Positions 20,835-51,731 of a stretch of 52,667 nucleotides of DNA are shown one piece after another. Origin of the DNA: Candidatus Nanohaloarchaea archaeon (GTDB lineage: Archaea; Nanohalarchaeota; Nanosalinia; Nanosalinales; Nanosalinaceae); assembly GCA_042217695.1 (NCBI GenBank), contig JBDGSE010000036.1, positions 1-52,667 on the forward strand, written 5' to 3'. The stretch's first letter is position 1, and each line of letters begins with the position of its first letter. The translations under genes were made by a program, and so were the position numbers. The notes below the pieces were generated by a model that was given only the letters and a program-made list of their open reading frames with translations, was not told the DNA's origin and ran no database searches.

Positions 20835-21029
20835 AAACTCACCTAGAGAGTTTAATCATTTCGAAAACCGCGGGGTTTTCTGCAAACGCAGAAACTCCAG
20901 AGGAGTTTCGAGTGTGAAGCCGCACAGGGCGGCTTTCGGTGGTTTGAGTTTCTTTCGTCGTGTTCATAGTATCGTTCTCGGGTTACGGTGGAAATAAATG
21001 AATGGGAGGGGGGAACCCCTCGGGCGTTT

Positions 21030-21248
21030 CTATATGAATCCTGCGAGCACCAGTGCCACTACGAGACCGAAGATAACCATGGTCTCAGGGATGACTGTCA
21101 TGATCAGGACCTGTCCGAACAGGCTGTCGTCCTCGGCGAGAGCGCCAACTCCCGCGGAACCGATCTTTGCCTGGGCGAGTCCTGTGCCCAGTGCGGACAG
21201 CCCGATCGCCAGTCCGGCACCGACTGCTGCTAATCCTTCTACTGCCAC
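21030..21248 (-). CDS. atpK: A/V-type ATP synthase proteolipid subunit K (c), single hairpin
   Basis: Gly-rich helix 1, IPETMVIFGLVV with carrier Glu; GTG start with AGGTGA SD. Confidence 0.95.
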   Translation of the reverse strand: MAVEGLAAVGAGLAIGLSALGTGLAQAKIGSAGVGALAEDDSLFGQVLIMTVIPETMVIFGLVVALVLAGFI

Positions 21249-21316
21249 TCGAAAATCACCTGATTTTCTGCGTGTCCAGCAAATCGTTGATTTGCGTTCA
21301 TTGCTTGATTTTCACC

Positions 21317-23104
21317 TCAAGTATCGATTTCGGATCCGAAGGGTTCGTACCTTCTTCCGCCTCCTTCAAAGAACTTCATGAACAGCTCCACGTAGTGAAG
21401 CCGGATGCCCTGAAGGAAGCCCTCTATGATTTTTATGAACGTGTTGAAGACGTGTCCGATGACGAGCACGAGTGTTCCAAGCACTATCCCGAGGACACCG
21501 CCCCGGAAAAGCGGGAGGGCCAGCGAATCGACCACTGCGGCCAGAGATACCGCGGCGACTGCCACCCCGAATATCCGGAGGTAGGACAGTATGTTGGACA
21601 GCAGCGAGGGGATCTCCACGAGTCCCTCGATTCCCTCTCCCAGGTACAGTGTAACCAGGGATATCGCCATCACTGGGGCGCCTGCTGCTGCGCCAAGGAA
21701 GTACCAGAGTCCGGCCCCGGCCTCCAGCAGCATCCAGCTGCCTTTCTCCAGGAAAGCCTCCTTTAAACCGTGTCTCACGTATTCGTTGTAGGCCCCGAGC
21801 AGGTATCCCATGTTGACGTGTACCAGCCCCATCAGCGCCGATACCTTGAACACCTTGCCCAGGTGTTCTGCCCGGTGGAACAGAACCGGTATCTCGCTGA
21901 AAAGATGGATGCCGGTGACCTGGGCCAGTTTCGAGTGCTCCCCGAATATCATGAACCCGAAAGCATCGCCGAACGCCAGGCCGAACAGGATGGTGAACAC
22001 GGAGGCGTACATCAGTGAAACAAAGATATCCTTCGCCTGAGGGAACATCCTGTATCCCAGGTAGAACACGGCCAGCGTGGTCAGACCGTAGCCGGCGTCA
22101 CCTATCATGAACCCGAAGAATAGCGGGAAAGTCAGGAATATCATGAAGCTGGGGTCCAGCTCGTTGTACCTGGGGACGGAGACCAGGTCTGTCAGGGGCT
22201 CAAATGGCTGGACTATCGCCGGGTTCTCGTGTTTCACCGGAGGGTTGTCGCCCTCTTCCCGTTCGATGTGGACCTTGCCGTCGGTCACGTCTGCGACCTG
22301 TTCCTCGAACCGGTCGTAGTCCTTCGATGGGATCCAGCCCTGTGCTATGAACGCGCTGTCCGTGGTCGCGAAATCCAGCGGGGCCTCCGCTTTCTCCACG
22401 CGTTCCGCGAGATAGTTTTCAACATCCTCGACTTTCGGCCTCCATTCGTCGGCCAGTTTCTGGAGCTTCCTCTCGGTGTCCTCTACTTTTTCCTGTATCT
22501 CGTTCCTCTCTTTCTGTATGTCGTCCAGTATGTCCTCTACACGTCCCTTCCTCTCCCTGTCCGGGAGGCTGTACTCTGTTTTACGTGCCTCAAGCAGGGC
22601 GTCCTCTGCGTCCGAATCCTTCTCGTAGACCACTGCGGACGCGGATTCTCCCTCTATTATCTCGTATCTCTCCGCTTTCGAGAGTTCCTCCCGGTCCACC
22701 TTACCTATGAAGACTCCCAGTTTTTCTGTACCTTTGAGATCCTCGTAGCGCAGGCCGGTGGACTGGAGCCTCCGGTAGAACTTTTCCTCTTCTTTCAGGG
22801 TGGAGAGCTCTCTCTTTCGTCCTTCTTTTTTCGCTATAAGCCGGTCTACATCTTCTGATACCTCGGGTATCCGTTCCTGGACCTCCTCGATGGATGCAGA
22901 GCCTGTCTCTTCTGTATCCGGCAGCTTTGATAGCAGGGAACGGGCGTCCACCAGGAGCTGTGATAGCTCTTCGGCGCCCTCGAGCGGGTCGCCTTTTTCC
23001 AGTTCTCCCTCGTAGGAATCGATGTCGAGTATTCCGAGGTCGTAGAAAGTGTCTATAACGTCCTCAAGATACTTCTTCGGGCCTGTTACCGAGATCCGGG
23101 TCAT
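21317..23104 (-). CDS. atpI: A/V-type ATP synthase subunit I (a)
   Basis: P.YNELDP, FFGFMIGDAGYG, NILSYLRI, IRLHYVE; true start may be ATA at 23119. Confidence 0.96.
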   Translation of the reverse strand: MTRISVTGPKKYLEDVIDTFYDLGILDIDSYEGELEKGDPLEGAEELSQLLVDARSLLSKLPDTEETGSASIEEVQERIPEVSEDVDRLIAKKEGRKRELSTLKEEEKFYRRLQSTGLRYEDLKGTEKLGVFIGKVDREELSKAERYEIIEGESASAVVYEKDSDAEDALLEARKTEYSLPDRERKGRVEDILDDIQKERNEIQEKVEDTERKLQKLADEWRPKVEDVENYLAERVEKAEAPLDFATTDSAFIAQGWIPSKDYDRFEEQVADVTDGKVHIEREEGDNPPVKHENPAIVQPFEPLTDLVSVPRYNELDPSFMIFLTFPLFFGFMIGDAGYGLTTLAVFYLGYRMFPQAKDIFVSLMYASVFTILFGLAFGDAFGFMIFGEHSKLAQVTGIHLFSEIPVLFHRAEHLGKVFKVSALMGLVHVNMGYLLGAYNEYVRHGLKEAFLEKGSWMLLEAGAGLWYFLGAAAGAPVMAISLVTLYLGEGIEGLVEIPSLLSNILSYLRIFGVAVAAVSLAAVVDSLALPLFRGGVLGIVLGTLVLVIGHVFNTFIKIIEGFLQGIRLHYVELFMKFFEGGGRRYEPFGSEIDT

Positions 23105-23125
23105 CTCTTCAGGTTTTATCGCCGG

Positions 23126-23446
23126 TCACCCCAGGAACTCTTCCCTGAATCTTGAGACCAGGATGTCCTTTGCGTCATCGCTTCTTTTCGCCGCCTTGCT
23201 TTTGAGCTCCCGAGCTTCATCTTTGCCTTCCTCTATGATATCTTTCCTCTCTTCTTCCATCTGTTCCCTGAAGTCCTCGAGTTCTTTCTCCTTTTCCTCC
23301 TTCGCGTTTTCCCTTGCTGCGTCGACGATGCGGTCGGCCTCTTCACGGGCCTCTTCAAGAATCTCGTCGCGAGTCTCTTCCGCGTCCTCGATTATCGATT
23401 TCGCATCTTTCTCGGCTTTTTTGACTTCTCTTACAACGTTAGCCAA
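23126..23446 (-). CDS. atpH: A/V-type ATP synthase subunit H (G)
   Basis: EA/K-rich helical stalk, first gene of operon; TTG start with AGGTGA SD. Confidence 0.88.
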   Translation of the reverse strand: MANVVREVKKAEKDAKSIIEDAEETRDEILEEAREEADRIVDAARENAKEEKEKELEDFREQMEEERKDIIEEGKDEARELKSKAAKRSDDAKDILVSRFREEFLG

Positions 23447-23483
23447 ACGGCCTCACCTACGGGTAAACAGGTGGCTGAAACTC

Positions 23484-23490
23484 TTATAAA
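23484..23490 (-). promoter_or_regulatory. TATA box of ATP synthase operon
   Basis: TTTATAA on minus strand about 38 nt upstream of atpH start. Confidence 0.6.
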
Positions 23491-23601
23491 GGAAACGAGA
23501 GCGTGTTTCCTGTTACTATTTAAAAAAATTTTTAGAGCCCGGGCAGTAACTAAAGCCGGGAGACGCCCGGGTTGAAATAAGTTTAGACCGCTTTATCTTC
23601 C

Positions 23602-24696
23602 ATGGAGGAACGCGGCATAAGGATATTCGCCCCGGACGAGGAGGAGCCCACCAAGGATTCCGAGGTGTTCTTCAACGAGGAGATGAGGAGGAACCGTGAC
23701 CTGTCCGAGATAGCTCTCAGCGTCTTCGCCGGGGAATCGGATATAGACGAGTTGCGGGCGGTTGACGCCCTTGCAGGCACCGGTATAAGAGGGATGCGTT
23801 ACGCGGGGCACGCCGACCGGGTGTTCCTGAACGATACCAATCCCTCGGCGGTTGAAAACATCGAAAGGGCCCTCGACGAGAACGGTATAGATGCCGAGGT
23901 CTCGAACAAGGACGCCAACGTCCTTCTTTCCGAACACAGGAACTACTTCCACTTCATAGATATCGACCCCTTCGGTCCATTCACCAGTTTCCTGGATTCT
24001 GCCGCGAGAGCCACCAACCACAACGGTTTCGCAGGTTTTACTGCAACAGATAACGCCGTGGCCGCGGGCAGCTATGTGAAGACCTGCAGGAGACGTTACG
24101 GTGTCGAACCGATGGACGAGAGCTTCATGCACGAGGTCGGCCTCCGGATCTATATTGGTGAGGTGTTCCGGAACTACGCCCGTTTCGACAAATGCTTCGA
24201 CCCAAAGATCAGTTTTCACCACCGCCATTACTCACGGGTGATGGGCCGTGTCACCGAATCCAAGAGACGGACCAACCGTTCCCTGGACAGTATGGGTTAT
24301 CTGTCGTTCTGTCCGGACTGCCGGTGGCGTGGCTTCGAGAGGAGAGAGGAGTGCCCTGTCTGCGGGTCAGGGACACGGATCGCGGGCCCTCTATGGACGG
24401 GCAAGTTTGTTGACAGAAGGTTTACTGAAAAGATGCTGGAGGAGTTCCCCGGGGACTGGGAGTCGAAAGAGTTCCTGGAGACAGTCCACGGCGAATCCGA
24501 GATACTGACCCCATTCTACGACATGCATGAACTTGCGTCCTCCCTGAAAGTCCAGGTACCTCCCAGGGACGACGTTCTTGAGGCGATAGAGGAGAGAGGT
24601 TATCCGGTCTCAGAGACACATTTCTCCCCCACAGGTTTCAGGACGGACGCACCCGTCGAGGATGTCCGGCAGATTATAGAGGATTTATCGCCGTAA
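23602..24696 (+). CDS. trm1: tRNA (guanine-26)-N2,N2-dimethyltransferase
   Basis: VFFN..M..NRDLS, DALAGTGIRGMRY, IDIDPFG, TATD, CxxC..CxxC, GPLWTG. Confidence 0.95.
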   Translation: MEERGIRIFAPDEEEPTKDSEVFFNEEMRRNRDLSEIALSVFAGESDIDELRAVDALAGTGIRGMRYAGHADRVFLNDTNPSAVENIERALDENGIDAEVSNKDANVLLSEHRNYFHFIDIDPFGPFTSFLDSAARATNHNGFAGFTATDNAVAAGSYVKTCRRRYGVEPMDESFMHEVGLRIYIGEVFRNYARFDKCFDPKISFHHRHYSRVMGRVTESKRRTNRSLDSMGYLSFCPDCRWRGFERREECPVCGSGTRIAGPLWTGKFVDRRFTEKMLEEFPGDWESKEFLETVHGESEILTPFYDMHELASSLKVQVPPRDDVLEAIEERGYPVSETHFSPTGFRTDAPVEDVRQIIEDLSP

Positions 24697-24733
24697 CACA
24701 GGATTCAAATACCTGGTCGCGAAATAACCAACT

Positions 24734-25147
24734 ATGAAGAATCCCTGGTACGAGGTTCTCGAGGCCCTGTACGAACACGATGAACTCTGGGAGATGGAGG
24801 CATCTCAGGTCTCCCAGCTGGCGGAACTCACCGAGCTTGAAGAGGAACAGGTTGAGGAGACGCTTGAGAACCTTGAAAACCAGGAGCTCATCAAGAGAGA
24901 GCTGGATACCATCATCCTCACGAAGAGAGGGTTTGACCTCATCAGCCAGAAGGAGACCCACGAGGAACAGTTGCTGACGGAAAGATTGCTCCTGGTGTTC
25001 GTGACCGCACTCTCCTTGGGGACGCTGATGGATACGGCTATAGCGGTGGGGCAGACCAACAACGTGTTTTTGCAGGTGGCCTACAACGCTCTCTTCGCGA
25101 TAATATTCATAGTCCTCGGCATGATTGCCAAGCAGAACATGGGGTAG
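24734..25147 (+). CDS. Winged-helix protein with two C-terminal TM helices
   Basis: LAELTEL....VEETLENLENQELI....ILTKRG wHTH pattern followed by two hydrophobic helices. Confidence 0.65.
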   Translation: MKNPWYEVLEALYEHDELWEMEASQVSQLAELTELEEEQVEETLENLENQELIKRELDTIILTKRGFDLISQKETHEEQLLTERLLLVFVTALSLGTLMDTAIAVGQTNNVFLQVAYNALFAIIFIVLGMIAKQNMG

Positions 25148-25186
25148 AAAAATAAATAGGGAGGAGAGGGCCGTGTTTGAACGGCT

Positions 25187-26254
25187 TTAATTGCTCTTTT
25201 CCTCGAGTTCGTCCTCGAGTCCGAGCTTCTCCGCGAGCTCCTTGTAGCGGTTCCGGATCGTCACTTCGGTTACGCCGACAACGTCCGCGACCTCTCTCTG
25301 CGTCCGTTTCTCGCCTTCGAGAACGGCGGCGATGTAGAGAGCGGCTGCAGCGAGTCCTGTAGGTCCTTTGCCGGATAGAAGGTCTCGTTCACGGGCCTCC
25401 TTCAGGATGTTCCTGGCTCGTGCCTGTACCTCTCCGGATAGCTGAAGTTTTCCAGCGAAACGCGGCACATAGTCCTGCGGCTTCGCCGGTAGGATCCTGA
25501 GTCCTAGTTCCCGTGCAACGTACCTGTAGGCGCGGCCGATCTCTCGCTTTTCGATGCCGGAGGCCTCGGAGATCTCGTCCAGTGTCCTCGGTGTGCCCTG
25601 CTTCCGCGCGACGATGTATATCAGCGCGGAGATGATGGACTCCATTGAGCGTCCGCGGACCAGTCCCTGGTCGACCGCCTTTTCGTAAAGACGGGCAACC
25701 TCTTCGTGGACTGACTCCGGCAGGTTCAGGTTGGAGATCATCGAGTTGAGTTCGCTCAGCGCGAATCCAAGGTTCCGGTCCTTCGACTTTGTCAGGCGTT
25801 TATGCCATTTCCTGAGACGGTAGTACTGCGCCCTCTTGTCTCCGGAAACCTTGTAGAGTTCTCCAGAACCCTTTCCGATCTCGGTGGATACGCCCATGTC
25901 GTGTTTCGTGTACGTCAGGGGCTGGCCGGCGCGGGCTTTCTTTTCCTTTTCTTCCGCGTTGAAGGCCCTCCATTCTGCGGACTCATCGATACGGTTCTCG
26001 TCGATCACCATTCCACATTCGACACAGATGAGCTCGCCCTTCGCGGAGTCCTCCTCGAATCTCTGGGACCCACATTCGGGACAGGTCAGGACCACGTCGC
26101 CTTCCTCGGCTTCCTCCTGTCTTATCTCGTAATCGGCTTCCTTTTCCTCGTCAGGTTTTTCTTCCTCTTCTTCCTCTTCCTCGTCTTCTTCCCACTCGTC
26201 GGGGATGTCGTATTCATCAAATTCTCTTCGGGGGATGTTGGCTGAGTCTGTCAT
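25187..26254 (-). CDS. tfb: Transcription initiation factor IIB
   Basis: CPECG..CVECG Zn ribbon, EWRAF, cyclin repeats GRS and GKGP, VTEVTIRNRYKEL. Confidence 0.98.
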   Translation of the reverse strand: MTDSANIPRREFDEYDIPDEWEEDEEEEEEEEKPDEEKEADYEIRQEEAEEGDVVLTCPECGSQRFEEDSAKGELICVECGMVIDENRIDESAEWRAFNAEEKEKKARAGQPLTYTKHDMGVSTEIGKGSGELYKVSGDKRAQYYRLRKWHKRLTKSKDRNLGFALSELNSMISNLNLPESVHEEVARLYEKAVDQGLVRGRSMESIISALIYIVARKQGTPRTLDEISEASGIEKREIGRAYRYVARELGLRILPAKPQDYVPRFAGKLQLSGEVQARARNILKEARERDLLSGKGPTGLAAAALYIAAVLEGEKRTQREVADVVGVTEVTIRNRYKELAEKLGLEDELEEKSN

Positions 26255-26388
26255 AGTAAGAAGATTTCACCCGCAAAACATAAAAGCCCCCCAACTTTTA
26301 AATATATTTTCCTCGGTAGATTTACGTTTTAGTGACAACAGGCCGGGATGAAAGTTAATTTAATCATTGGCTGGTAAAAGAGGAAATT

Positions 26389-27456
26389 ATGGTGGAGGAC
26401 GAATCCCGGGTCCAGAGAGAAACCTTGGCTGTCGCGGCCCTTCTGTTTCTCGGAAGCCTCTTCATACTATACCCGTTTCTTGACGCCATAATAATGGCGC
26501 TGGCCACCGCCTATCTTCTCCGGTTCGCCCACGACAGGATTAACAGCAGGATACACAACGACCTCGTATCCTCCATAATAATAATCTCTGCTGTCCTGGG
26601 AGTTGTCTCTCTGGGTACGTTCTTCTTCATAAACAACTTCTTCGATATACTTTCACAGCTCAACCAGTTCACAGGCTCCTTGAGAGACACGCTGCTCCAG
26701 ATATTTGAGATGCTAAACCTCCCGGAGACGTTCCAGCAGAACGTGGACCGCTTCATCAACCGGATATCTGAGGCGACCACTTCAACACTTCTTGGGATAT
26801 TCACCTCTCTCCCGTCTGTGTTTATCGACCTGGGCATATTCCTTGTCACGGCGGTGTACCTTTACAGGGATCGGTCCAAGATAGAGAACCAGCTCCACGG
26901 GCTGCTCGATAACCTGCCGGCGCCGGAGGCCAAGATACTGAGATCGCTCATAAGGTCTATAGACAACATATTCCGTGGCGTGTTCATGACCCAGGTGATA
27001 GTTGCATTGATACTTGGTGTGCTGACCGCCGTGGGTTTCAGCGCTATAGCCGTCCTGACATCCTCGATACCGTTCATACCGCTCTGGGCGTTCCTGGTTG
27101 GTGTGGCGGCGCTCCTCCCATTAATGGCAGCTTTCATGGTCTACGGGCCGCTGGGGATATACTACCTTTTCGTGGGGCAACCGCTGAAAGGAGTGATAAT
27201 ACTGGTTTTCGGGGCATTCCTGCTCAACGTCCTCTCGGAGATATTCATCCGACCCTACATAGGTTCCAGGCAGATGGACGAGCACCCTCTCGTGGTTTTC
27301 CTCGGTTTCCTTGCCGGGCCGCTGGTGCTCGGCCTTAAAGGCCTTATTATCGGACCGCTGCTCCTCATACTCACGAAGGAGTTCATCCTCAACTACACTA
27401 ATCTGGTTTCCGGCTACTCTGTTCCGACCCGCAGTGAGGACACGGCAGAGAACTGA
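26389..27456 (+). CDS. AI-2E (PerM) family transporter
   Basis: Multi-TM; IRP..., HPLVVFLGFLAG...G.KGLIIGP. Confidence 0.9.
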   Translation: MVEDESRVQRETLAVAALLFLGSLFILYPFLDAIIMALATAYLLRFAHDRINSRIHNDLVSSIIIISAVLGVVSLGTFFFINNFFDILSQLNQFTGSLRDTLLQIFEMLNLPETFQQNVDRFINRISEATTSTLLGIFTSLPSVFIDLGIFLVTAVYLYRDRSKIENQLHGLLDNLPAPEAKILRSLIRSIDNIFRGVFMTQVIVALILGVLTAVGFSAIAVLTSSIPFIPLWAFLVGVAALLPLMAAFMVYGPLGIYYLFVGQPLKGVIILVFGAFLLNVLSEIFIRPYIGSRQMDEHPLVVFLGFLAGPLVLGLKGLIIGPLLLILTKEFILNYTNLVSGYSVPTRSEDTAEN

Positions 27457-27847
27457 TTTGCCGGCCACAGTTGTCACAGACCTGCACCCAGCTTCTCTTT
27501 TCTTTGACCGCTGGCTCCATGAAGCCCTCGAAATCCGCCTCCAGGTGGAGAGCCAGATTCTGGAGGTCTTTATCGTCTGTTACCAGATCGGTGTCCAGAG
27601 TTAACGCCAGCGCAAGCAGTTTCTCGTCTACTTCCGAAGTATCTGACCCAATCTCCTCCGATTTCTTTTTTACGCGTTCCAGTTTATCTTCGTCGGGTTC
27701 TTCCGGTTTCAGGTCAATTGTGTCGGCCTGGAGACGTGCACTGGAGCTTTTGAGCTCGTCAAACATCTCAGGTACAGTATACGCTGATTTAAACGGGTAG
27801 CGTCCCCTTCCATGTATCAGGACGTTTGCGTCGACCACTGGCGGCAT
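27398..27847 (-). CDS. nob1: Nob1-like PIN-domain endoribonuclease
   Basis: VVDAN, SEVD..LLALAL, TDD.DLQNLA, C-terminal CxxC..CPxCG. Confidence 0.88.
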   Translation of the reverse strand: MPPVVDANVLIHGRGRYPFKSAYTVPEMFDELKSSSARLQADTIDLKPEEPDEDKLERVKKKSEEIGSDTSEVDEKLLALALTLDTDLVTDDKDLQNLALHLEADFEGFMEPAVKEKRSWVQVCDNCGRQISSLPCPHCGSEQSSRKPD

Positions 27848-27912
27848 CTTTAACCCCTGATGACCTATGATTATTAAAAAATATTTGCAGAAACAGTTTA
27901 ACGTGATACACA

Positions 27913-28110
27913 ATGACACTACCTGATGCACCAATCGAGCGAATAATCAGAAAAGCAGGAGCCGAAAGAGTATCAAAGGACGCCGTGGAAGAGCTCAGAG
28001 ATGCTGTAGAAGAGCTAGGCGAGGAAATCGCCCGGGACGCCATAGAGATGGCCGAACACGCAGACCGGAACACGGTGAAAAAAGAAGACATCGATCTTGC
28101 AACGGAGTGA
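27913..28110 (+). CDS. Archaeal histone (HMf-type singlet)
   Basis: [28 protein letters not shown]. Confidence 0.97.
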
Positions 28111-28164
28111 TCTCCCTTGAAAACCGTAGATTCACGGCTTTCAGAGGTAGAGGGTGGTCTCTAG

Positions 28165-28548: not shown

Positions 28549-28605
28549 CCCCTCCTCCCCTGTTTTTTGACGAAGAATTAAAATCTTCGCCGAGTACCTA
28601 GAATT

Positions 28606-30523: not shown

Positions 30524-30529
30524 CCCGAC

Positions 30530-39614: not shown

Positions 39615-39620
39615 AACTTT

Positions 39621-41372: not shown

Positions 41373-41435
41373 GTTTTCTCATCCCGTCCGAGCCTTTTCA
41401 CTTTTATCACTTTTCGCCCACCAATCATATACTGT

Positions 41436-43427: not shown

Positions 43428-43477
43428 GGCCGGTCTCTGTGGGACTTTTTTATAGAACCAGAAGGAAAGCATCTGGT

Positions 43478-44041: not shown

Positions 44042-44089
44042 CGGAAGATAATCGCAACCTACTAAAGAGTTTTACCTTATCATTTTAAC

Positions 44090-44833
44090 ATGCCACAGCA
44101 GAAAAGGCAGACTGCAAAACTTACCAACACAGAGGAACTTAACTCGGGTAAATACTTTCAGAGAGAAGGTTTCGAGCCGAATTTTCTGCTTACGCCCGAG
44201 GGAAGGAGGCTTTCCCGCGCCCGTTTCGTGGGGACTGTAGTTGACACGTTTGTAAACGATGACGAGACTTACGGCTCGCTGACGTTCGACGACGGCCGTG
44301 ACACGGTACAGGTGAAGTTCTTCAACGAGATAGCGAGGATGCAGGAGTTCGATATCGGTGATATAGTCGAGGTCGTTGGAAAGGTCCGGGAGTACCAGGG
44401 ACAGATATACCTGGATGCAGAGATACTGAAGAGCCGCTCCGTGGAAAAAGAGCTGTTACACCAGTTAAAGTACAGGAAATCTGAGGAGGAGTGGAAACAG
44501 ATACGGGAGACAGTCCGGCAGCTGAAGGAGTCCGGAAAGGACCAGGAGGAGATCGAGAAGGAGATGGCCGGCAAACTTGAGGAGGAAGAGGTCGATGCAC
44601 TTCTGCAGAGCTTCGGGGAAAGCTTCTCGTCCGAGGAGATTGAGGACGTGGAGAACCTGGAACGCGATGTCCTTGACGCTGTGGAGAAACTCGACGAGGG
44701 CGACGGCGCCGACTACTCGGATATAGTCGATGAACTGGACGAGCCGGAGGACGCGCTCGAGGACACGATAAACTCGCTTCTATCCGAGGGAACGTGCTAC
44801 GAGCCGCAGCCCGGCAAGATAAAGAAGCTTTGA
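44090..44833 (+). CDS. RPA2-like OB-fold protein with C-terminal winged helix
   Basis: SRARFVGTVV, DDG...V, V.VVGKVREY; LL.EG.CYEP.PG. Confidence 0.85.
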   Translation: MPQQKRQTAKLTNTEELNSGKYFQREGFEPNFLLTPEGRRLSRARFVGTVVDTFVNDDETYGSLTFDDGRDTVQVKFFNEIARMQEFDIGDIVEVVGKVREYQGQIYLDAEILKSRSVEKELLHQLKYRKSEEEWKQIRETVRQLKESGKDQEEIEKEMAGKLEEEEVDALLQSFGESFSSEEIEDVENLERDVLDAVEKLDEGDGADYSDIVDELDEPEDALEDTINSLLSEGTCYEPQPGKIKKL

Positions 44834-44834
44834 G

Positions 44835-45239
44835 GTGACGGAAATGGACTACGACGAGATGCTGGAAAAGGGACAGGAAGAGGTACCGGAAGACATGGGT
44901 TCTGAGGAAAGGTTCGACATACCGGACCCGGAGACGAGAAAGGAGGGTTCCCGCACGATACTGGAGAACTTCTCCGAGATCGCGGACGTCTTTGGCAGAG
45001 AGGAGAGCCATCTCTCGAAATACATACAGAACGAGCTCGGTACCGCTGGCCACATCGAAAACGGAGAACTGGTGCTCAACGGAGAGTTCCGCCGCGGCCA
45101 GATAAAGGGCCGTATCCACCAGTACGCCGACGAATACGTTTTCTGCCCTGAATGCGAACGCCCGGATACAGAGATCGTAAAGGAGAAGGGCGTGGAGATA
45201 ATGAAGTGTCAGGCCTGCGGCGCCAGGACCTCTCTCTGA
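44835..45239 (+). CDS. eif2b: Translation initiation factor aIF2 beta
   Basis: ERF.IP, NF.EIA....R, ELGTAG, YV.CPEC..PDT, CQACGA. Confidence 0.96.
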   Translation: MTEMDYDEMLEKGQEEVPEDMGSEERFDIPDPETRKEGSRTILENFSEIADVFGREESHLSKYIQNELGTAGHIENGELVLNGEFRRGQIKGRIHQYADEYVFCPECERPDTEIVKEKGVEIMKCQACGARTSL

Positions 45240-45289
45240 GTCGAGAGAATTTAAATAGCCTTTTCGGTAAAAACTATTTGTGGTATCTG

Positions 45290-45568
45290 ATGGCGGGAGA
45301 GAGATTCTATACCAGGGCCGCCCGTGAAATCGTGGACAAATATGAAAGCGTGATAGGGGAGGCCGCTGAAGGCATAGCAAAGAAAAATGATAACGTCGAA
45401 TTCGAGGATGGCGAAGTAAAGAGCTTCGATGGAGGTGCCGAGGAACTGGACGGACTGGTGCAGGAATACGTGGATACCGTCGGTGACGTGGCCCTGCGAC
45501 TCGCCCAGCAGGTCCTGAACGGCATGGAGGGTGCCGGGGAAGCTGATCTACCCGACCGGCTCGCCTGA
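45290..45568 (+). CDS. Hypothetical protein
   Basis: 92-aa acidic ORF after AT-rich promoter-like region. Confidence 0.65.
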   Translation: MAGERFYTRAAREIVDKYESVIGEAAEGIAKKNDNVEFEDGEVKSFDGGAEELDGLVQEYVDTVGDVALRLAQQVLNGMEGAGEADLPDRLA

Positions 45569-45679
45569 ACCCTGTTATCCCGCTTTCCGCGGCACTGATT
45601 CTCGAAACCGAACTCTTCTCAACTGGCTGCAGAGGGTTTAAAGGGTTAAGGGAGGAACAAGTAGTTACAGGTGTTTAAT

Positions 45680-45889
45680 ATGGCAGAAGAAGTAGACACG
45701 CAACAGGCACTCCAGATCTTTGAGAGAAGGCTGAACGACATCCAGCTTACAGTTCACGCCCTGCTTTCAGTACTCGAGGAAAAAGACATGGTTGATCAGG
45801 ATACCATCAACGACAAGGCACAGGAAATAGTTGAGGAGATCGAGGAACAGCAGGACCAGCCAGGAGATCTGGAAGACCAGCTTGAATAA
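45680..45889 (+). CDS. Small helical hypothetical protein
   Basis: AGGTG SD and TTTAAA box upstream; ALLSVLEEK.MV pattern. Confidence 0.7.
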   Translation: MAEEVDTQQALQIFERRLNDIQLTVHALLSVLEEKDMVDQDTINDKAQEIVEEIEEQQDQPGDLEDQLE

Positions 45890-45907
45890 AAACCTCTTGA
45901 GGGGCCA

Positions 45908-46585
45908 TCACCCTTCCGGGTCCCTGTCCCCCGTTACAAATTCTTCATAGTACCGGCATCCCTCTTTCAGAACACAGTTCTCGCAGTCCGGGTTTCTGGC
46001 GGTACATGTCTCCCGGCCGTGTGTTATCAGGAGCCGGTGGAACTCGTATTTTATCCCGTCAGGAACCTTTTCCTCCAGGATGTCATGGGCTTTCTCGCGG
46101 GAAGCGTTCTCCGGCACCAGTCCCAGCCGTTTCGAGACCCGGTGGACATGGGTGTCGACCGGTATCACGGGTTTCCCGAAGTGGAAACAGAGTATTATTG
46201 CGGCGGTCTTCGGGCCGACACCCGGGAGCTTTGTCAGCCACTTCTTGGCCTCATCTATCTCCAGATCCTCTATAAATTCTAGCGTGTAATCTCCCCGTTC
46301 CTCCCTGATTATCTGCAGCGATTCCTGGATACGTTTCGCCTTGGTGGGGCCGAGACCTGCCGTGCTTATGGTCTCGGCCAGCCGTTCACGGTCGGCGTTC
46401 TCCACCTCCCGGTAGGAGTCGAACTCGTCCTTGAACTGCTGGAAAGCCCGGTCCCGGTTCACGTCGTTGGTGTTCTGCGATAGTACTGTCTCGATCAGGT
46501 AGTCCATCCCGGACTGCTCCTGAGGTCTCTCGGGTTCGCCGTATTCCTCCTTCAGTCTGTCGTTCAGCTCTTTGATGCGATTCAT
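45908..46585 (-). CDS. nth: Endonuclease III (HhH-GPD glycosylase with 4Fe-4S)
   Basis: LSQNTND, LPGVGPKTA, VDTHV.R, CTARNPDCENCVLKEGC. Confidence 0.95.
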   Translation of the reverse strand: MNRIKELNDRLKEEYGEPERPQEQSGMDYLIETVLSQNTNDVNRDRAFQQFKDEFDSYREVENADRERLAETISTAGLGPTKAKRIQESLQIIREERGDYTLEFIEDLEIDEAKKWLTKLPGVGPKTAAIILCFHFGKPVIPVDTHVHRVSKRLGLVPENASREKAHDILEEKVPDGIKYEFHRLLITHGRETCTARNPDCENCVLKEGCRYYEEFVTGDRDPEG

Positions 46586-47445
46586 CGTTCCGCCTTCTGG
46601 AAGCTGTAGAGTTTTTCGGGTGCTTTCCTGTGGGGGTCGAAACCTCCAAGATGGGTGCCGGGCAACTCCTTGCAGAGCCTTTCCTCGCCCAGCAGTAGAG
46701 GGTCTTCGTGGTCCTCGAGGGCAGCCCTCACCTCCTCCAGATGGTTCTCTACCTGTTCCTCTCTCTTCCGTTCGAACCGTGACTGGGAGTAACCGCCCTG
46801 CGAATGCTTGTGTTCTATCCTGGATTTGATGTGGTCGAGTTCCTCCACCCGGCCGCCCTCCTCTCTGTATATCTTTGTATCGCCGGCAGAGACCAGGACC
46901 CAGATCTTCTGCTCCTCGATGAACTCCCTGATTGTGGAGGTATCGAAACCTGTGTCAAGGCTCCATTCAGGGCTGTAGAATACCCTTGTCTTTAGCCTGA
47001 TGTCCGGGAGCTGCGAGTCGAAGAAGTACACTCCCGGCGACTCCTGGAGGAAAGCCAGTTGCTCCCCTGTTATAGAGTTTTTCAGGCCCTGGAGGTCTCC
47101 TATCTCATCCACGGATTCTCCCCGGTAAACCGTCACCATGTCCCTCTCCCCGGACTGGATGGATCCCAGCTTCCGGACCAGCTGGAGGGCTTCCTCGAAC
47201 CCCAGTTCTTCAGGGGACGTTCCGTCTTCATCTTCTTCATCGTCCTCGTCGTCTTCCAGTGTACGCAGTCTGTCTTTCAGCCTGTTCAGCTCTTCTTCCG
47301 CCTCCTGCTTCTTCCGCGAGAGTTCCTGTCGCCGTTCGGACTCTGCCTCGTACCTCTCCTTCCAGGACTCGATTTCTTCTTCCAGTTTCTGTACCTGTTG
47401 CCGCAGCCGTTCCTTTTCCTCGTCCTCTTCCCAGGGCCAGTCCAT
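46582..47445 (-). CDS. Vms1/ANKZF1-like (aVLRF1) release factor with N-terminal coiled coil
   Basis: KHSQGGYSQSRFERKREEQ motif. Confidence 0.85.
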   Translation of the reverse strand: MDWPWEEDEEKERLRQQVQKLEEEIESWKERYEAESERRQELSRKKQEAEEELNRLKDRLRTLEDDEDDEEDEDGTSPEELGFEEALQLVRKLGSIQSGERDMVTVYRGESVDEIGDLQGLKNSITGEQLAFLQESPGVYFFDSQLPDIRLKTRVFYSPEWSLDTGFDTSTIREFIEEQKIWVLVSAGDTKIYREEGGRVEELDHIKSRIEHKHSQGGYSQSRFERKREEQVENHLEEVRAALEDHEDPLLLGEERLCKELPGTHLGGFDPHRKAPEKLYSFQKAER

Positions 47446-47534
47446 ACCCCTGTTTTGGGTTTGAAAGTTTAAATTGTGGCGAGAAACAGGAAACCTTTTA
47501 AGTTTCATTTAAATACAGTGAATTAGTGGTTTAG

Positions 47535-47831
47535 ATGCCGAAGATGACGGTTGAGGAACTGGAAGCCGATTCTGACAATGTCGAAATCGATGGCAAGATA
47601 AAAGAACTGCCCACTCCGCGAGCTGTTTCAACCCAGTACGGGCAGAAGAAGATCACTACAGCGGTGTTCGAGGACGACACCGGCGAGATCGATCTCACGC
47701 TCTGGGAGGAAGAGATCGAGGAGGTAGAAGAGGACGCGGAAGTACACATCGAGGGAGCCTACGTTAGAGAGTGGGCCGACGACATCCAGCTCAACATAGG
47801 AAGGGAAGGAACCATAGAGAAGACCGAGTAA
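47535..47831 (+). CDS. ssb: Single OB-fold ssDNA-binding protein
   Basis: DDTGEI.LTLW, AYV.EW....QLNIGREG. Confidence 0.9.
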   Translation: MPKMTVEELEADSDNVEIDGKIKELPTPRAVSTQYGQKKITTAVFEDDTGEIDLTLWEEEIEEVEEDAEVHIEGAYVREWADDIQLNIGREGTIEKTE

Positions 47832-48025
47832 ACCTGTTTCTATCTTATCTTTCTGTGCGGACAGCGCTACAGCCAGGAGACCCATGTGTTGTAACTTTCC
47901 AATAATAACGCCGGGTGCGGGCGCCTGGAGAGGATCGAGCAGATACGCCGGCCCGTGAACTGTACGGGTTAGAACGGGAAGAAAGTTTAAGCTCGCCCCA
48001 GAAATATCTTACACGGAGGGGGCGG

Positions 48026-48727
48026 ATGGAGGACACAAAATACTTCTCGTCAAGGAGTGCACGGAGAGACTTCGTCATCCGCGCATCACTGGTTACAGCA
48101 GTTCTGCTGGCGTTTACAGCAGTGATAAAGCTCAGATTCGGCTTTCTTTTGAACCCGGAGGAGGCCCGGAACTGGGTGGCCGAATTCGGCTTCTACGCGC
48201 CCCTGGTATTCGTACTGGTACAGACAGTACAGGTGATACTGGCCCCGATACCCGGGCAGATAACTGCTGTGGCCTCCGGATATCTCTTCGGGGTCTGGAA
48301 GGGCACTCTCTACAGCATGGTGGGTATCGCATTCGGGAGCCTGATCGCGTTCCAGCTCTCGCGGATGTACGGCAGACCGTATGTGGAGAGGGTACTCGAT
48401 GACCGGGTTATAGATGATTTCCACAGATTCGCCCAGGAAAGAGGGGAGCTTGCGCTGTTCGTAATCTTTCTAGTGCCGGGTCTTCCCGATGACGCCATAT
48501 GCTTCCTCGCAGGCCTGACAGATATCGATGCCCGCAAATTCCTGACCGTGCTGCTGGTAGCGAGAACACCCAGCTTTTTCCTTTCAAGCCTTGCAGGCTC
48601 CAGCCTTGCGACCTCCAGGGTAAAACTTGGTTTCGCAATCCTTGTCGTGGGTGCCATGGTTTCGCTCGCCTTCTACCGCTGGAGAGAGGTCCTGGGAGAG
48701 TACTACCGGGTGCCCGGCGACAGATGA
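48026..48727 (+). CDS. DedA/VTT (TVP38/TMEM64) family membrane protein
   Basis: QVILAPIPG, GYLFG, LVPGLPDD.IC..AGLT. Confidence 0.92.
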   Translation: MEDTKYFSSRSARRDFVIRASLVTAVLLAFTAVIKLRFGFLLNPEEARNWVAEFGFYAPLVFVLVQTVQVILAPIPGQITAVASGYLFGVWKGTLYSMVGIAFGSLIAFQLSRMYGRPYVERVLDDRVIDDFHRFAQERGELALFVIFLVPGLPDDAICFLAGLTDIDARKFLTVLLVARTPSFFLSSLAGSSLATSRVKLGFAILVVGAMVSLAFYRWREVLGEYYRVPGDR

Positions 48728-48770
48728 GGAATCTAAAGGTTTTTCAAGTTGGACTCCGCTCCAGAAACTG

Positions 48771-49853
48771 ATGGGTATCGAGGACAGGATCCAGGAACTG
48801 GAGGAAAAACTGGAGAAGACACCGGTGAACAAGGCCACCGAGACCGAACGTGCCCGGATAAAAGGACAGATAGCCAAACTGAAAGAGGAGAAGGAGAAGA
48901 AACAGAAGGGCACCGGCGAGACCTCGGGATACGCCGTCAGGAAGCAGGGCGACGCGACAGTCGCTCTGGTGGGGTTTCCCTCGGTCGGGAAGTCAACGCT
49001 TCTCAACCAGTTGACAAACGCGGATAGCGAGACCGGGGAGTACGAGTTCACGACACTCGACGTGGAGCCCGGGATGCTGAAACACAGGGGGGCAAACATA
49101 CAGATACTTGATGTTCCCGGCCTGATAGGCGGGGCTGCCGAGGGCCGTGGAGACGGTACACAGGTGTTAAGTGTCGTGAGGAACGCGGACCTCGTGCTCA
49201 TACTGCTTGATCAGGAAAACCGGTACGAGGAGATCTCATCGGAGCTTTACAAGGCCGGTATAAGGCTTGACACAGAGCCGCCCAGGATAAAGGTGGAGAA
49301 AAAGGACCGCGGCGGGATAGATATATCCGCGACGGCAGACCTGGAACTGGAGGAGGACACTATAGAACAGCTGATGGAGGACAACGGCTACGTCAACGCC
49401 GACGTCATAATCCGGGAAGAGGTCGATATAGACAGGTTTATCGATGGACTGATGGACAACAGGAAGTACGTGCCCTCTCTTACGGTTATGAACAAGGCAG
49501 ACCTTCTGTCAGGGAAGGAAAAGGAAAGATATGGCGAAAAATACGACCTGCTGGTATCCGCGGAGGAAGGCAAAAACCTGGAGGAGCTGAAAGACGAGAT
49601 ATTCAACGGTATCGGGCTTATCCGGGTCTACATGAAGGAGAAGGGAGAGGAGCCCGATAAAGACGAACCGCTGATACTCCGTGAGGGAGACACCGTGGAG
49701 GACGCGATGGACGAACTGCCTGGCAACATGAAGGAAAGGTTCAAGTCCGCAAAGGTCACCGGCCCCAGCTCGAAGTTCCCGGAACAGAAAGTCGGGGAAG
49801 ACCACGTACTGCAGGATGAGGATGTGCTGGAACTCAACCTGAGACACGTCTAG
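48771..49853 (+). CDS. DRG/OBG-family GTPase with TGS domain
   Basis: TPVNKATE, GFPSVGKST, YEFTTL, DVPG, NKAD, QKVG.DH.L.D.D. Confidence 0.95.
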   Translation: MGIEDRIQELEEKLEKTPVNKATETERARIKGQIAKLKEEKEKKQKGTGETSGYAVRKQGDATVALVGFPSVGKSTLLNQLTNADSETGEYEFTTLDVEPGMLKHRGANIQILDVPGLIGGAAEGRGDGTQVLSVVRNADLVLILLDQENRYEEISSELYKAGIRLDTEPPRIKVEKKDRGGIDISATADLELEEDTIEQLMEDNGYVNADVIIREEVDIDRFIDGLMDNRKYVPSLTVMNKADLLSGKEKERYGEKYDLLVSAEEGKNLEELKDEIFNGIGLIRVYMKEKGEEPDKDEPLILREGDTVEDAMDELPGNMKERFKSAKVTGPSSKFPEQKVGEDHVLQDEDVLELNLRHV

Positions 49854-50006
49854 CTTAACCTTCTGTTCTCCCCATGTAAAGGGTTTTTAACAGAGAATTC
49901 TTTAGAAGGTCTGTAAAGCGGTAAAAAATCTTCTTCAACGTTTTTGAACGATTAGCGCTGCTTTCACGCTCTAGATTTAAAAGGTTTCAGGGAGAACCAC
50001 AACCTG

Positions 50007-50117
50007 ATGCAGACCGATTTCATAGACGATACCGGGCACCAGATCCCCGTGGAATTCGAGGAACCCGGTGTCGCAAGAAAGGTCTTCACCTATCTGAAAT
50101 CCCTTGTAAGAGGGTAA
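50007..50117 (+). CDS. Putative 36-aa small protein
   Basis: TTTAAAA box 49976-49982, ATG 50007, T-tract after stop; MQTDFIDDTGHQIPVEFEEPGVARKVFTYLKSLVRG. Confidence 0.55.
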   Translation: MQTDFIDDTGHQIPVEFEEPGVARKVFTYLKSLVRG

Positions 50118-50134
50118 GTTTTTCTCCCTCTATT

Positions 50135-50587
50135 TTATTTCGATATGCTCTCGAGAAAATCGCGCTGCTCCTCATCTATCTCGTCGCGCTTCTTTTCCAC
50201 GGTCAGAACCACGAGGTCGTCGCTGTCAAACTTTTCCAGGTCCGAACCCTTCACGTACCGCGCAAGACACGAGGTGTTCCTCGCTGGTGAGACGATGAAC
50301 TCCAGCTCGTAGTCCGTCTCATCCCCTCCAAAAACTATTCTCACAAAGTCTCTCCGGGTCTGCAGATGTCTCCTGATGGCTTCCGCCGTTTCATCGTCGA
50401 AAGCGGGATACTCATGTACCTTCCAGGAGTCTCCCTCCGGCGTTGCACGTTCGATGGACACTGTGTAGAACTCGCACCTTTCGCCGTACTGGCCATGACA
50501 GTACCTGGTTATCTCCTCGGCAAGGTCCTCAAGCTCCCCGCTGTAAACTGTGTAGACCGAGTTCTTCCCCTGGTTCTCCATCAACAT
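50135..50587 (-). CDS. Hypothetical protein
   Basis: 150-aa acidic ORF; start 50587 or 50581. Confidence 0.65.
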   Translation of the reverse strand: MLMENQGKNSVYTVYSGELEDLAEEITRYCHGQYGERCEFYTVSIERATPEGDSWKVHEYPAFDDETAEAIRRHLQTRRDFVRIVFGGDETDYELEFIVSPARNTSCLARYVKGSDLEKFDSDDLVVLTVEKKRDEIDEEQRDFLESISK

Positions 50588-50630
50588 ATGCAGTAATGGG
50601 GGCTGGACCGATAAAAAACTCTGTTATCCC

Positions 50631-51005
50631 CTACTCCACAGGTACCGCGTTGATTACGCCGTCCTGACCGGGGCGTGAAGTGATGCGGGCCTTCCCCTCG
50701 GGTGTCTGGATTATGGTTCCCTTGGTAAGCAGCGAACGTCTCACGTAGTTCGGGTTGGCCGGGTTCTCCTCGACCGACTCGATCTCCACGTTCTTGACCT
50801 CGCCATCGACGGACAGGTTCACGGAATCGGCTCTCTTCACAACGTTCTTGGTGTCGCCACCCCGGACATCCTTCTTCCGGATCCTGGACTCGCCGAGCTC
50901 CGGAGCCGAAAACTCGTCTCCCAGCTCGAACTTCCGGGATTTCCGGTATCTCCGGGTTTTACCTCCCGTCTTCTTGGTAAGGGATCTTCTGTGCCATATT
51001 GCCAT
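50631..51005 (-). CDS. rps8e: 30S ribosomal protein S8e
   Basis: RS..KKTGG, RGG..K, NPAN..YVRR..LTKG.II, TSRPGQDGVINA. Confidence 0.98.
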   Translation of the reverse strand: MAIWHRRSLTKKTGGKTRRYRKSRKFELGDEFSAPELGESRIRKKDVRGGDTKNVVKRADSVNLSVDGEVKNVEIESVEENPANPNYVRRSLLTKGTIIQTPEGKARITSRPGQDGVINAVPVE

Positions 51006-51134
51006 AGTTCCAGTATCCTGACAAAATTTTATAAAAAGAACTCTCGACGCGGTTTCAACCCGGAGAAAGAGCCGGACCGCGGTAGGTTTATATAATTTGT
51101 CAAGGGAATTGAGGCATACAGGTGCCCAGATTTT

Positions 51135-51374
51135 ATGTCAGAAAACAAACGACCATTTGATGTTCTAGACGAGTCGAAAGGAGGAAACGTACTAGTAAAA
51201 CTGAAGGCCTACGGCCGTGACAAGGAGCCCACGGTCTCGGGAGAGCTTCAGGCATTCGACAAACACCTGAACATCTGGCTCGACAACGCCAGGGTCAAAA
51301 CCGATGACTCCACCACCGAGTACGGAAAGCTCTTCGTACGCGGAGATAACGTTCTGTTCGTCAGCCCAGAGTGA
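51135..51374 (+). CDS. Sm-like (Lsm) protein
   Basis: RPFDVL, G.L.AFD.HLNI.L, VRGDNV. Confidence 0.95.
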   Translation: MSENKRPFDVLDESKGGNVLVKLKAYGRDKEPTVSGELQAFDKHLNIWLDNARVKTDDSTTEYGKLFVRGDNVLFVSPE

Positions 51375-51380
51375 TCCCGG

Positions 51381-51542
51381 ATGGGAATGAACAAAGGTAA
51401 ACGGAACAAGAAAACCCACGGCAAATGCAGGCGCTGCGGAAAGAAGGCTTTCCACCTGCAGAAAGGCGTGTGTGCAGCCTGTGGTTTCGGGAAGTCCAAG
51501 AAGAGAGAGGACTTCCAGAAGGCGAAGAACCGCAAGGACTGA
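51381..51542 (+). CDS. rpl37e: 50S ribosomal protein L37e (missing from ORF track)
   Basis: [20 protein letters not shown]....VCAACGFG; conserved Lsm-L37e synteny. Confidence 0.95.
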
Positions 51543-51598
51543 AAAAGCATTCAAATATTTCTGCCGGCATTTCTAACATCGAAGAGCCGGGTATACCT

Positions 51599-51731
51599 GG
51601 GCCTGTAGCTCAGTCTGGCAGAGCACCGGCCTTTTAAGGCCTGGCTCCTCTTGCGAGGGGCTGGCCCAGAAGACCGCGAGGTCTTCGTCGAAGACAGCCG
51701 GTAGTCGCGGGTTCAAATCCCGTCGGGCCCA
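51599..51731 (+). tRNA. tRNA-Lys(UUU) with 59-nt intron at 37/38 (51637-51695)
   Basis: Acceptor GGGCCTG/CGGGCCC, anticodon stem CCGGC/GCCGG, TTCAAAT T-loop; canonical BHB (CTTT/GAAG helix, TA|A and AC|A bulges); no encoded CCA. Confidence 0.93.

Follow-up and report, generated by a model that had tools for sequence, protein, structure and literature searches.

The stretch of DNA considered here (the window) is contig JBDGSE010000036.1, 52,667 nucleotides long, of a Candidatus Nanohaloarchaea archaeon (assembly GCA_042217695.1). It carries on its minus strand two genes of an A-type ATP synthase: atpK, encoding the c subunit (21030..21248, 72 aa; Pfam PF00137, 1.9e-19), and atpE, encoding subunit E (20292..20834, 180 aa; Pfam PF01991, 1.4e-18). 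Each is preceded by an insert made of two hairpins, one of 53 nt at the atpI-atpK junction (21246..21298, minus) and one of 55 nt in the atpE leader (20860..20914, minus), and a similar hairpin lies on the plus strand in the canonical 37/38 intron of a tRNA-Lys(UUU) gene (51599..51731; Rfam RF00005, 58 bits, and aragorn -i). We favour, with some reserve, the view that the two atp modules are copies of a dispersed double-hairpin repeat of Nanohaloarchaea, 50-55 nt long, which is missing at the same sites in relatives and is likely spreading as a non-autonomous mobile DNA insertion. The host genome (G000 below) amounts to 757 kb in 44 contigs, the window being contig C30, and is 82.7% complete; the relatives' genomes are of about 1 Mb, and all the genomes compared are metagenome-assembled genomes or assemblies.

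Results

Three sites only in the window fit CAGAARAYC-N4-GRTYTTCG: one in the atpK-atpE spacer (20882-20862, minus, reading CAGAAAACCCCGCGGTTTTCG), one in the atpI-atpK spacer (21270-21250, minus, CAGAAAATCAGGTGATTTTCG) and one in the tRNA-Lys(UUU) intron (51667-51687, plus, CAGAAGACCGCGAGGTCTTCG). These are the sites to which an earlier, sequence-only reading had drawn attention, and the strands, the stems (GAAAACC/GGTTTTC, GAAAATC/GATTTTC and GAAGACC/GGTCTTC) and the loops (four nucleotides, different in each) are as it had given them. All three hairpins are present in the minimum-free-energy folds of their regions, with z-scores of -2.9, -2.3 and -3.8. The 21-nt pattern has no match in 100 shuffles; since it was made from the very same three sites, this zero expectation is circular and says little.

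An unbiased count of perfect 7-bp hairpins with loops of 3-6 nt gives 300 in the host genome, against 184-246 in five Markov shuffles. The stems that top this count are GAAAATC (7 copies) and GAAAACC (5), with GAAGACC found twice, and the shuffles never hold more than two of any stem. In a looser census there are 67 hairpins of the form GAAR..YTTC, 42 of them outside a greedy set of open reading frames (ORFs) that covers about 90% of the genome, and they are often paired through ..TTTC-TG-N-CA-GAAA...

The covariance model and genome scan that the sequence-only reading had proposed were carried out with a model (R1) whose seed, 30 double-hairpin modules, comes entirely from genomes other than G000. 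R1 nevertheless scores the atpK copy at 62.5 bits (E 1.5e-16) and the atpE copy at 54.1 bits (E 6.5e-14), followed by a copy before the gene for ribosomal protein uS15 on contig C12 (44.8 bits). The genome holds 34 matches at E<=1, and the 22 at E<=0.01 make up 15 loci. Of the 70 genomes of the order, 53 yield matches; the count per genome runs from 0 to 56 and varies even inside genera (0 vs 19 in one, 0 vs 21 in another). At gathering score, an Rfam scan of the whole window returns two tRNA matches only, so that the repeat fits no Rfam family, and we did not find the element described in the titles and abstracts of the literature on nanohaloarchaeal tRNA introns and intergenic palindromic repeats; in a passage of PMC5829648, a nanohaloarchaeon appears merely as one of the genomes scanned for tRNAs.

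The stems covary. When 111 matches (102 distinct rows) are aligned by fitting to the model, 95.7% of the cells pair, against 81.0% in shuffles and at most 65.8% in slid controls, and 13 of the 14 pairs show double-sided changes, which none of 500 shuffles equals; the compensatory stems and free loops previously read from three sites are thus borne out. The unit consists of hairpin 1, a TG-N-CA linker and hairpin 2, the latter of the type GAAAAYC..GRTTTTC, and both of its stems covary; variants of hairpin 1 include GAAATTC/GAATTTC, GAAAATC/GATTTTC, GAAACTC/GAGTTTC, GAAGATC/GATCTTC and CAAATC/GATTTG. Most modules also contain a central hairpin, TTTCTG-N5-6-CAGAAA, the formation of which excludes both hairpin 1 and hairpin 2. 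Units of the atpK type have full-length kin, 74-86% identical, before other genes in other genera, with matches at E<=0.05 in 23 of 49 other genomes of the family. For hairpin B, the first hairpin of the atpE unit, the exact pattern CGAAACTCC-N3-4-GGAGTTTCTG has 42 matches in one genome per species of 185,579 species: 23 are archaeal (18 in Nanohaloarchaea/Nanohalobium, 1 in Asbonarchaeaceae and 4 in "uncultured archaeon"), with several per genome, and the other 19 are bacterial and scattered, about 9 being expected by chance from simple arithmetic.

The copy at atpK shows most plainly how a unit sits on a start codon. Its hairpin 1 (CAAATC/GATTTG, 21294-21280, minus) is followed by the linker CTGGACACGCA and by hairpin 2 (GAAAATC-AGGT-GATTTTC, 21268-21251, minus), and the insert ends with the GTG start codon of atpK (21248-21246), 2 nt after the hairpin 2 stem. 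This start was set by alignment to orthologues, which begin ATGGCAGTAGAAGG; orthologues of atpK are present in 33 of 41 genomes. In copies of this type the Shine-Dalgarno sequence (SD) that serves the present start is shared between the loop of hairpin 2 and its 3' arm (here AGGT is the loop and GA belongs to the arm), much as the sequence-only reading had placed it. The ancestral ATG of atpK, behind a first SD (GAGGTGA, 21318-21312), now opens an upstream ORF (uORF) of 20 codons (21239..21301, minus; MNANQRFAGHAENQVIFEWQ) that spans both hairpins and ends with a TAG lying 7 nt beyond the GTG's first base.

The corresponding empty site exists. A 193-nt contig of the metagenome run X1 joins 21245 directly to 21299, with exactly 21246-21298 gone, and the junction so formed (..AATG followed by GCAGTAGAAGG) is the plain junction found in 22 of 30 assembled relatives. 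The other 8 have an insert after the atpK ATG: G023 carries the same 53 nt, its congener G007 a 31-nt version with one hairpin, and G006, G013, G009, G024 and G002 short uORF versions. The 53-nt unit is 100% identical in G000 and G023, which belong to different genera, while the flanking 40-nt windows are mostly 55-97% identical; a recent transfer could account for this, as could gene conversion, a master copy inserted repeatedly, or a binning error.

After the atpK stop codon (20990-21029, minus), most relatives were seen by eye to have a hairpin rich in G+C followed by CATTCATTTATT; it might act as a terminator or attenuator behind the c-subunit gene, or else serve atpE as an internal promoter.

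In the atpE leader, the 55-nt unit consists of hairpin B (GAAACTCC-TCT-GGAGTTTC, 20909-20891, minus), the linker TGCGTTTGCA and hairpin C (GAAAACC-CCGC-GGTTTTC, 20880-20863, minus). It is nested in a longer insert lying 3' of the ancestral atpE start (gatactATG), which has become the start of a 42-codon uORF (20839..20967, minus). This uORF holds a hairpin A (20935-20917), the 55-nt unit and a hairpin D (AAACTC-TCTAGGT-GAGTTT, 20853-20835) whose loop carries the SD, and it stops at the TGA within the SD AGGTGAG, 7 nt before the atpE ATG. Hairpin D is fully covarying among relatives (GGTTA/TAACC, CAGTT/AACTG, GGGT/ACCC, AAACTC/GAGTTT). Here too the filled site has an empty counterpart: in run X3 a 222-nt contig passes from 20859 to 20915 across just one letter, and a relative without exactly these 55 nt therefore exists. 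Each of the two missing pieces, at atpK and at atpE, amounts to both hairpins and their linker plus a few bases at the edges. At this place in the atpE leader the unit itself is found in G000 only, and five other genomes have different inserts there.

An 88-bp stretch that includes the atpE unit is 84% identical to the leader of uS15 on contig C12, and this is the sole similarity of the two loci. In contigs of X1, X2 and X3 the whole 154-nt uS15 leader is replaced by 4 letters, the SD, spacer and ATG remaining. The A/T-rich stretch after hairpin C was considered as a TATA box and set aside, the uS15 copy having no A/T-rich box there; a C/D-box reading of cagATGATGA..CTG was likewise rejected, there being no CUGA box, as was a clustered regularly interspaced short palindromic repeat (CRISPR), there being no array.

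Two further observations concern the atpE leader. Its last part (20835-20860, minus) and three other loci share cagATGATGAAACTCTCTAGGTGAgttt, a leader end that recurs before protein genes and tRNAs and encodes a mini-uORF (MMKLSR; MIKLSR in the atpE leader) stopping in the SD. In the minimum-free-energy fold of 20825-20975 (minus), the region of the ancestral start, CUAUGAAC, pairs with that of the present atpE start, GUUUAUGG, a pairing predicted to close the whole inserted leader into one domain.

The arrangement seen at atpK and atpE recurs in most leader copies. Among the 34 examined (7 from G000 and 27 from loci of relatives), 27 have an ATG-initiated uORF, 14-47 codons long, which runs across the module and has its stop at -12 to +7 relative to the main start; of the 7 exceptions, one is the RpoP copy, with an ORF too short for our script (by eye its stop is at -2), one has an early stop, two have no ATG-initiated uORF and three no long downstream ORF. 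The uORF begins at or beside the original SD and start of the gene and ends on or near the present start codon, its stop taking the form of RTGA over the start, of TAATG, of the TGA in the SD GGTGA, or of TTTTGA-ATG, with a C turned into T. The encoded peptide varies with the stems (EIQRIS, ENQRFS and ETHRVS, for example); since hairpin 1 covaries and the peptide changes with it, it is the pairing that is kept, not the peptide.

In G000 the module stands before uS15, S6e, uS7, uS4 and RpoP, and in relatives before EF1A, EF2, aIF2-gamma and many ribosomal-protein genes. By Pfam, 30 downstream genes comprise 17 for ribosomal proteins (S4e by a weak match below cut-off), those for aIF2-gamma, EF1A, EF2, SerRS and ProRS, and others for RpoP, Spt4, AtpK, AtpE, an E1-beta-like protein, an ABC ATPase, an RFC-like AAA protein and DnaJ. 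The idea of the sequence-only reading that the hairpins flank and serve the high-stoichiometry c-subunit cistron does not survive this list, nor the plain atpK start of most relatives and the restriction of the atpE module to one genome. In a less biased census, of the complete genome G016 (21 loci fetched from 38 matches), 10 of the 21 units are found at gene starts, where the uORF stops at -13 to +8, 5 have a tRNA gene within 200 nt and 6 are elsewhere.

The third site is a different matter. The tRNA-Lys(UUU) gene is detected by Rfam and by ARAGORN in intron mode (without this mode ARAGORN reports no tRNA in the window), and its 59-nt intron (51637-51695, plus) contains the hairpin GAAGACC-GCGA-GGTCTTC (51669..51686), a look-alike rather than a demonstrated member of the repeat. 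This intron is not among the 34 matches that R1 gives in the genome at E<=1. Without filters, and when the window alone is scanned, it receives 9.2 bits in sense (E 0.39) and 11.4 bits in antisense (E 0.081), and genome-wide its E is above 1. Of the 25 genomes in which the gene was read, 6 are without an intron, 13 carry introns of 26-214 nt that are unrelated, and 6, from six genera (G000, G013, G004, G003, G016 and G019), have a homologous intron of 57-65 nt. In these the GAAG..CTTC of the hairpin is kept and its inner pairs covary (ACC/GGT in G000, AGC/GCT in G019), and the hairpin is shorter in several relatives (GAAGC/GCTTC in G004, G003 and G016, only GAAGA/TCTTC in G013). Before the hairpin the five orthologous introns have CGAGGAYNNA and not CTG-N-CAG, so that the CTG..CAG linker is not conserved.

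Judging from sequence, the splice motif of this intron is formed by its 3' GAAG, which pairs with the anticodon-loop CUUU between the 3-nt bulges UAA and ACA, and all of the introns end in GAAGAY or a variant that makes this pairing. The GAAG of the hairpin stem repeats the 3' GAAGAC needed for it, so the resemblance to the atp hairpins may be forced. As the hairpin is kept, with covarying inner pairs, in homologous introns, it is real and selected as an old structural part of its own intron, next to the splice motif, its likeness to the atp copies being probably in part forced and in part fortuitous; the intron is at most a distant relative of the repeat.

Other tRNA genes do harbour the family. 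The archaeal copies of hairpin B lie in tRNA introns, in tRNA trailers or directly before tRNAs, and those before tRNAs follow a copy, 5-8 nt and of varying length, of the tRNA's own 5' end. Of the suggestion that one undescribed structured element is dispersed over the three sites, the part that concerns the two atp copies stands and the part that concerns the tRNA-Lys(UUU) intron is not confirmed; a mobile mini-element moving between tRNA introns and mRNA spacers, one of the roles then proposed, comes closest to what we find, the family having members in mRNA leaders and in or beside tRNA genes, the tRNA-Lys(UUU) copy itself excepted.

The tRNA genes of the window and of related contigs show some further regularities. 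tRNA-Ile(GAU) (52522-52667, plus) has a 70-nt intron beginning ACTGGTTACGCCCAGT, a hairpin with the fixed loop TTACGC, and on contigs C6, C12 and C16 the same hairpin opens the tRNA-Thr(CGU) and tRNA-Lys(CUU) introns and lies a few bases into a tRNA-Arg intron; it also precedes hairpin B in tRNA introns and trailers of relatives, and constitutes a second conserved module family. Downstream of tRNA-Lys (51770-51860) are the hairpins AAACTCGTCTACAGAGTTT and AAGGCGTTCAAACAGAACGCCTT, and a near-identical AAGGCATTCAAACAGAATGCCTT is found on contig C28 (about 150-180), with a tRNA-Pro fragment and a further GAAAACC hairpin next to it. On contig C1, pieces of tRNA 3' ends (..GGTTCAAATCCCGGACGCCGCA, twice) alternate with double-hairpin units (1-320), and a T-arm-like fragment, GGGGTTCGAA, does so on contig C6 (15940-16020). 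Finally, the long tRNA-Lys(UUU) introns of seven loci (93-214 nt), which are of other intron families, carry ..AAAGCGCTGAGG.. towards the 5' end and ..CGATGAT.. towards the 3' end, an order that would fit a C/D-box RNA only once the intron has been circularised.

The motif had been described as always in RNA-sense orientation. This holds at the three sites, and carries little weight for the bare motif, because a unit of the form C-GAAA..TTTC-TG-N-CA-GAAA..TTTC-G reads alike on both strands; R1 indeed gives the atpE copy 54.1 bits in sense and 47.3 bits in antisense. A call of orientation from flanking bases (A before and G after the stem) was abandoned, the first hairpin of the unit having the opposite flanks and the unit being symmetric. 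A test of strand asymmetry from G-U versus A-C cells was also discarded, since in the alignment used (A2) hairpins with 4-nt loops were out of register and gave false A-C cells.

Discussion

Several known systems resemble the repeat in part. Repetitive extragenic palindromic sequences (REPs), bacterial interspersed mosaic elements (BIMEs) and REP doublets forming hairpins (REPINs) are mobilised by Y1 transposases known as REP-associated tyrosine transposases (RAYTs). In the definition used here, to which PMC10969869 contributes, they are short palindromic units, often linker-joined pairs, present in dozens per genome between the genes of operons, with compensatory stem changes and with copy numbers that vary among close relatives, and the double-hairpin unit described here, with its 15 loci in G000 and its presence in 53 of 70 genomes, is alike in all this. 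It differs in belonging to an archaeal host, in having no Y1 transposase in G000 and 39 of 40 relatives, and in not being simply extragenic, its units lying inside presumably translated mini-ORFs at start codons and in tRNA introns.

[quoted passage not shown] MITEs are far longer (about 100-250 nt, against 50-55 nt; PMC10969869), and the CGAAA..TTTCG ends arise because both ends are hairpin arms of like sequence, there being no separate terminal inverted repeat outside the hairpins. As to a parent insertion sequence, PF01609 and PF07282 gave nothing above cut-off in 5 complete genomes and PF01797 is absent, other families not having been searched. Rickettsia palindromic elements insert in frame and are fused to the host protein (PMC10969869), whereas the units here make up a uORF distinct from that protein, provided with a stop, an SD and a start of its own, and a peptide that varies at the covarying stems. 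Among the features that define REP and MITE, the repeat has no RAYT and no parent insertion sequence in the families searched, and its target duplications are ambiguous.

A third comparison is with the transposed tRNA introns of Thermoproteales (Fujishima et al. 2010, via PMC4090602), similar short sequences found in different tRNA genes, at canonical and other positions, whose spread is placed by that account at the DNA level, its mechanism unknown. The likeness is that closely similar sequences recur in different tRNA genes of one lineage and that the presence of introns varies among relatives, as with the Lys(UUU) gene here (intron-less in 6 of 25); the differences are that most copies here lie outside tRNA genes, at the starts of protein genes, that the atp copies have no bulge-helix-bulge (BHB) motif and that copies at the 5' ends of tRNAs have duplicated gene ends at their flanks. 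The BHB motif of archaeal introns is read from the sequence in the tRNA-Lys intron; in the atp units neither the folds nor inspection show it.

On the side of translation, overlapping stop and start codons have been tied to termination-reinitiation coupling (PMC6728339 and PMC10666635). The uORF stops overlap or abut the main start (RTGA, TAATG) or lie within a few nucleotides of it, at +7 in atpK and -7 in atpE, as in such pairs; here, in contrast, the upstream partner is a repeat-borne ORF of 13-47 codons instead of a gene, and the downstream SD is predicted to be held in a hairpin. The geometry makes translational coupling at unit-bearing starts likely. A leader-peptide attenuator, with its mutually exclusive hairpins, comes to mind as well: there are three of them here, with no shared codon run and no U-tract after hairpin 2.

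These comparisons bear on what the atp modules are. That three A/U-rich hairpins should resemble each other by chance is an explanation to which we give practically no credence: the circularity of the original pattern speaks for it, yet GAAAATC and GAAAACC, the commonest stems of the unbiased count, never exceed two copies in shuffles, and an independent model yields E of 1e-14 to 1e-16 for the two atp copies. For these it is refuted, and it is possible for the intron copy only. More attractive, although we find it doubtful, is the opposite extreme, in which all three loci represent one element and the tRNA-Lys intron is a captured copy. At 59 nt the intron has the size of one unit and the same order of parts (a hairpin, CTG..CA, a GAAGACC hairpin and G); it is the best full-length R1 match in the window outside the atp copies, it is absent in some relatives, and hairpins of the GAAGAC type recur in the tRNA-Thr intron, the uS7 leader and tRNA flanks of G000. 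The marginal R1 scores, the five homologous introns without the linker and with a hairpin 1 unlike that of the family, and a stem that may be dictated by the splice motif all tell against it. Very improbable, in our opinion, is that the atp units are cut from the mRNA by the tRNA splicing endonuclease at BHB motifs, released as circles and the ancestral leader so restored, which would tie them to tRNA introns. Kin of the module do occur in introns of tRNA genes, in relatives those for Thr, Ala and Arg and in G000 those for Thr(CGU) and Lys(CUU), and removal of the 53-nt unit would restore ATG followed by GCAGTAGAAGG exactly. Cleavage of the atp copies is nevertheless without support, because no such motif brackets them: neither the minimum-free-energy folds nor inspection show a 3-nt bulge, 4-bp helix and 3-nt bulge formed by the flanks of either unit. 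Units at tRNA 5' ends, besides, are flanked by direct repeats of the tRNA end and not by complementary sequence, and the conserved design of uORF and stop would be pointless if the unit left the RNA.

A further rival, which we think rather unlikely, is a translational leader cassette selected by the host, in which the uORF and the SD-sequestering hairpin tie the translation of highly expressed genes to ribosomes already upstream, the three overlapping hairpins (hairpin 1, TTTCTG..CAGAAA and hairpin 2) act as a ribosome-sensitive switch, and copies are kept for function and spread by duplication or recombination. Much of the leader design agrees with it: stops cluster at the main start irrespective of the frame that the variable loops dictate, hairpin 2 has the SD in its loop and 3' arm, stems covary while the peptide changes, every mRNA copy is in sense, most modules can form the central hairpin, and translation machinery (ribosomal proteins, translation factors and aminoacyl-tRNA synthetases) accounts for 22 of the 30 downstream genes, in a sample biased by the way loci were fetched. 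What speaks against it is that the module also occurs in tRNA introns and leaders, where there is no translation, that its presence varies among congeners and strains and the carrier gene changes from genome to genome, that there is no shared sensing codon and no terminator U-tract after hairpin 2, and that atpK and atpE are expressed without the module in most relatives.

We therefore return to the dispersed, probably mobile repeat, against which a number of points must be counted. PF01797 (Y1, IS200/IS605-like transposase) is absent in G000, itself incomplete, and in 39 of 40 relatives, being found in G039 only, by a search whose control was positive in 6 of 14 known genomes; PF01609 and PF07282 gave nothing above cut-off in five complete genomes with 11-35 R1 matches, other transposase families not having been searched. 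As for a target-site duplication, there is a 2-nt (TG) ambiguity at atpK, and at atpE the unit takes the place of one letter, no repeat being visible. Deletion, too, readily affects palindromes, so that the direction of the change at the empty sites is inferred only, and the identical copy of G023 could be due to recombination or a binning error. The alignment used for covariation leans to the model and holds both strands of many loci, and its rows, like the copies in general, are paralogues and not independent events. Lastly, the uniform uORF design, the kind of gene served, the sense bias (near tRNA genes, 7 copies score better in sense and 1 in antisense, by 3.4 bits, with 2 ambiguous) and the G-U pairs that arise where a C>T change makes a stop codon (G051, G013 and G007) show a constraint at the RNA level, which a regulatory leader selected by the host would fit as well.

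We still think a mobile repeat rather probable. Discrete units are dispersed through the genomes, at sites filled in one and empty in another, with covarying stems and a constant geometry of uORF, SD and stop. The unit would have been inserted rather than deleted, and copied by some mechanism supplied in trans. It might survive at start codons by bringing its own SD, start codon and nearby stop codons: ribosomes starting at the old site would read through the unit, melt its hairpins, terminate and re-initiate on the gene by termination-reinitiation coupling, and translation of the gene would thus go on. Related units in tRNA genes would be maintained either as introns or next to gene ends that have been duplicated.

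One may go further and imagine a selfish "portable start site", that is, a 50-55-nt mobile element which lands on the starts of the most heavily translated genes, brings along a mini-ORF, a ribosome-binding site and a start codon together with stops for every frame, keeps the host gene working through re-initiation and, in tRNA genes, becomes a source of new archaeal tRNA introns. We put this forward tentatively, as an idea that may well prove wrong.

Conclusions

For annotation, leaders of this kind shift the true start codons of genes, as with atpK, which starts at a GTG behind a 20-codon uORF, and produce mini-ORFs, which will be overlooked or wrongly called by gene callers. Should the units be mobile, they show how selfish repeats are accommodated in a very small genome (about 0.9 Mb, 90% coding), namely where the ribosome reads through and restarts, and they would offer a natural library of initiation sites, each a uORF plus hairpin, before ribosomal-protein and factor genes. 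The members in or beside tRNA genes bear on the gain of archaeal tRNA introns, for which the mechanism is called unknown in the account of PMC4090602. Were the portable start site true, it would represent a new class of translation-aware mobile element and a handle on the origin of these introns.

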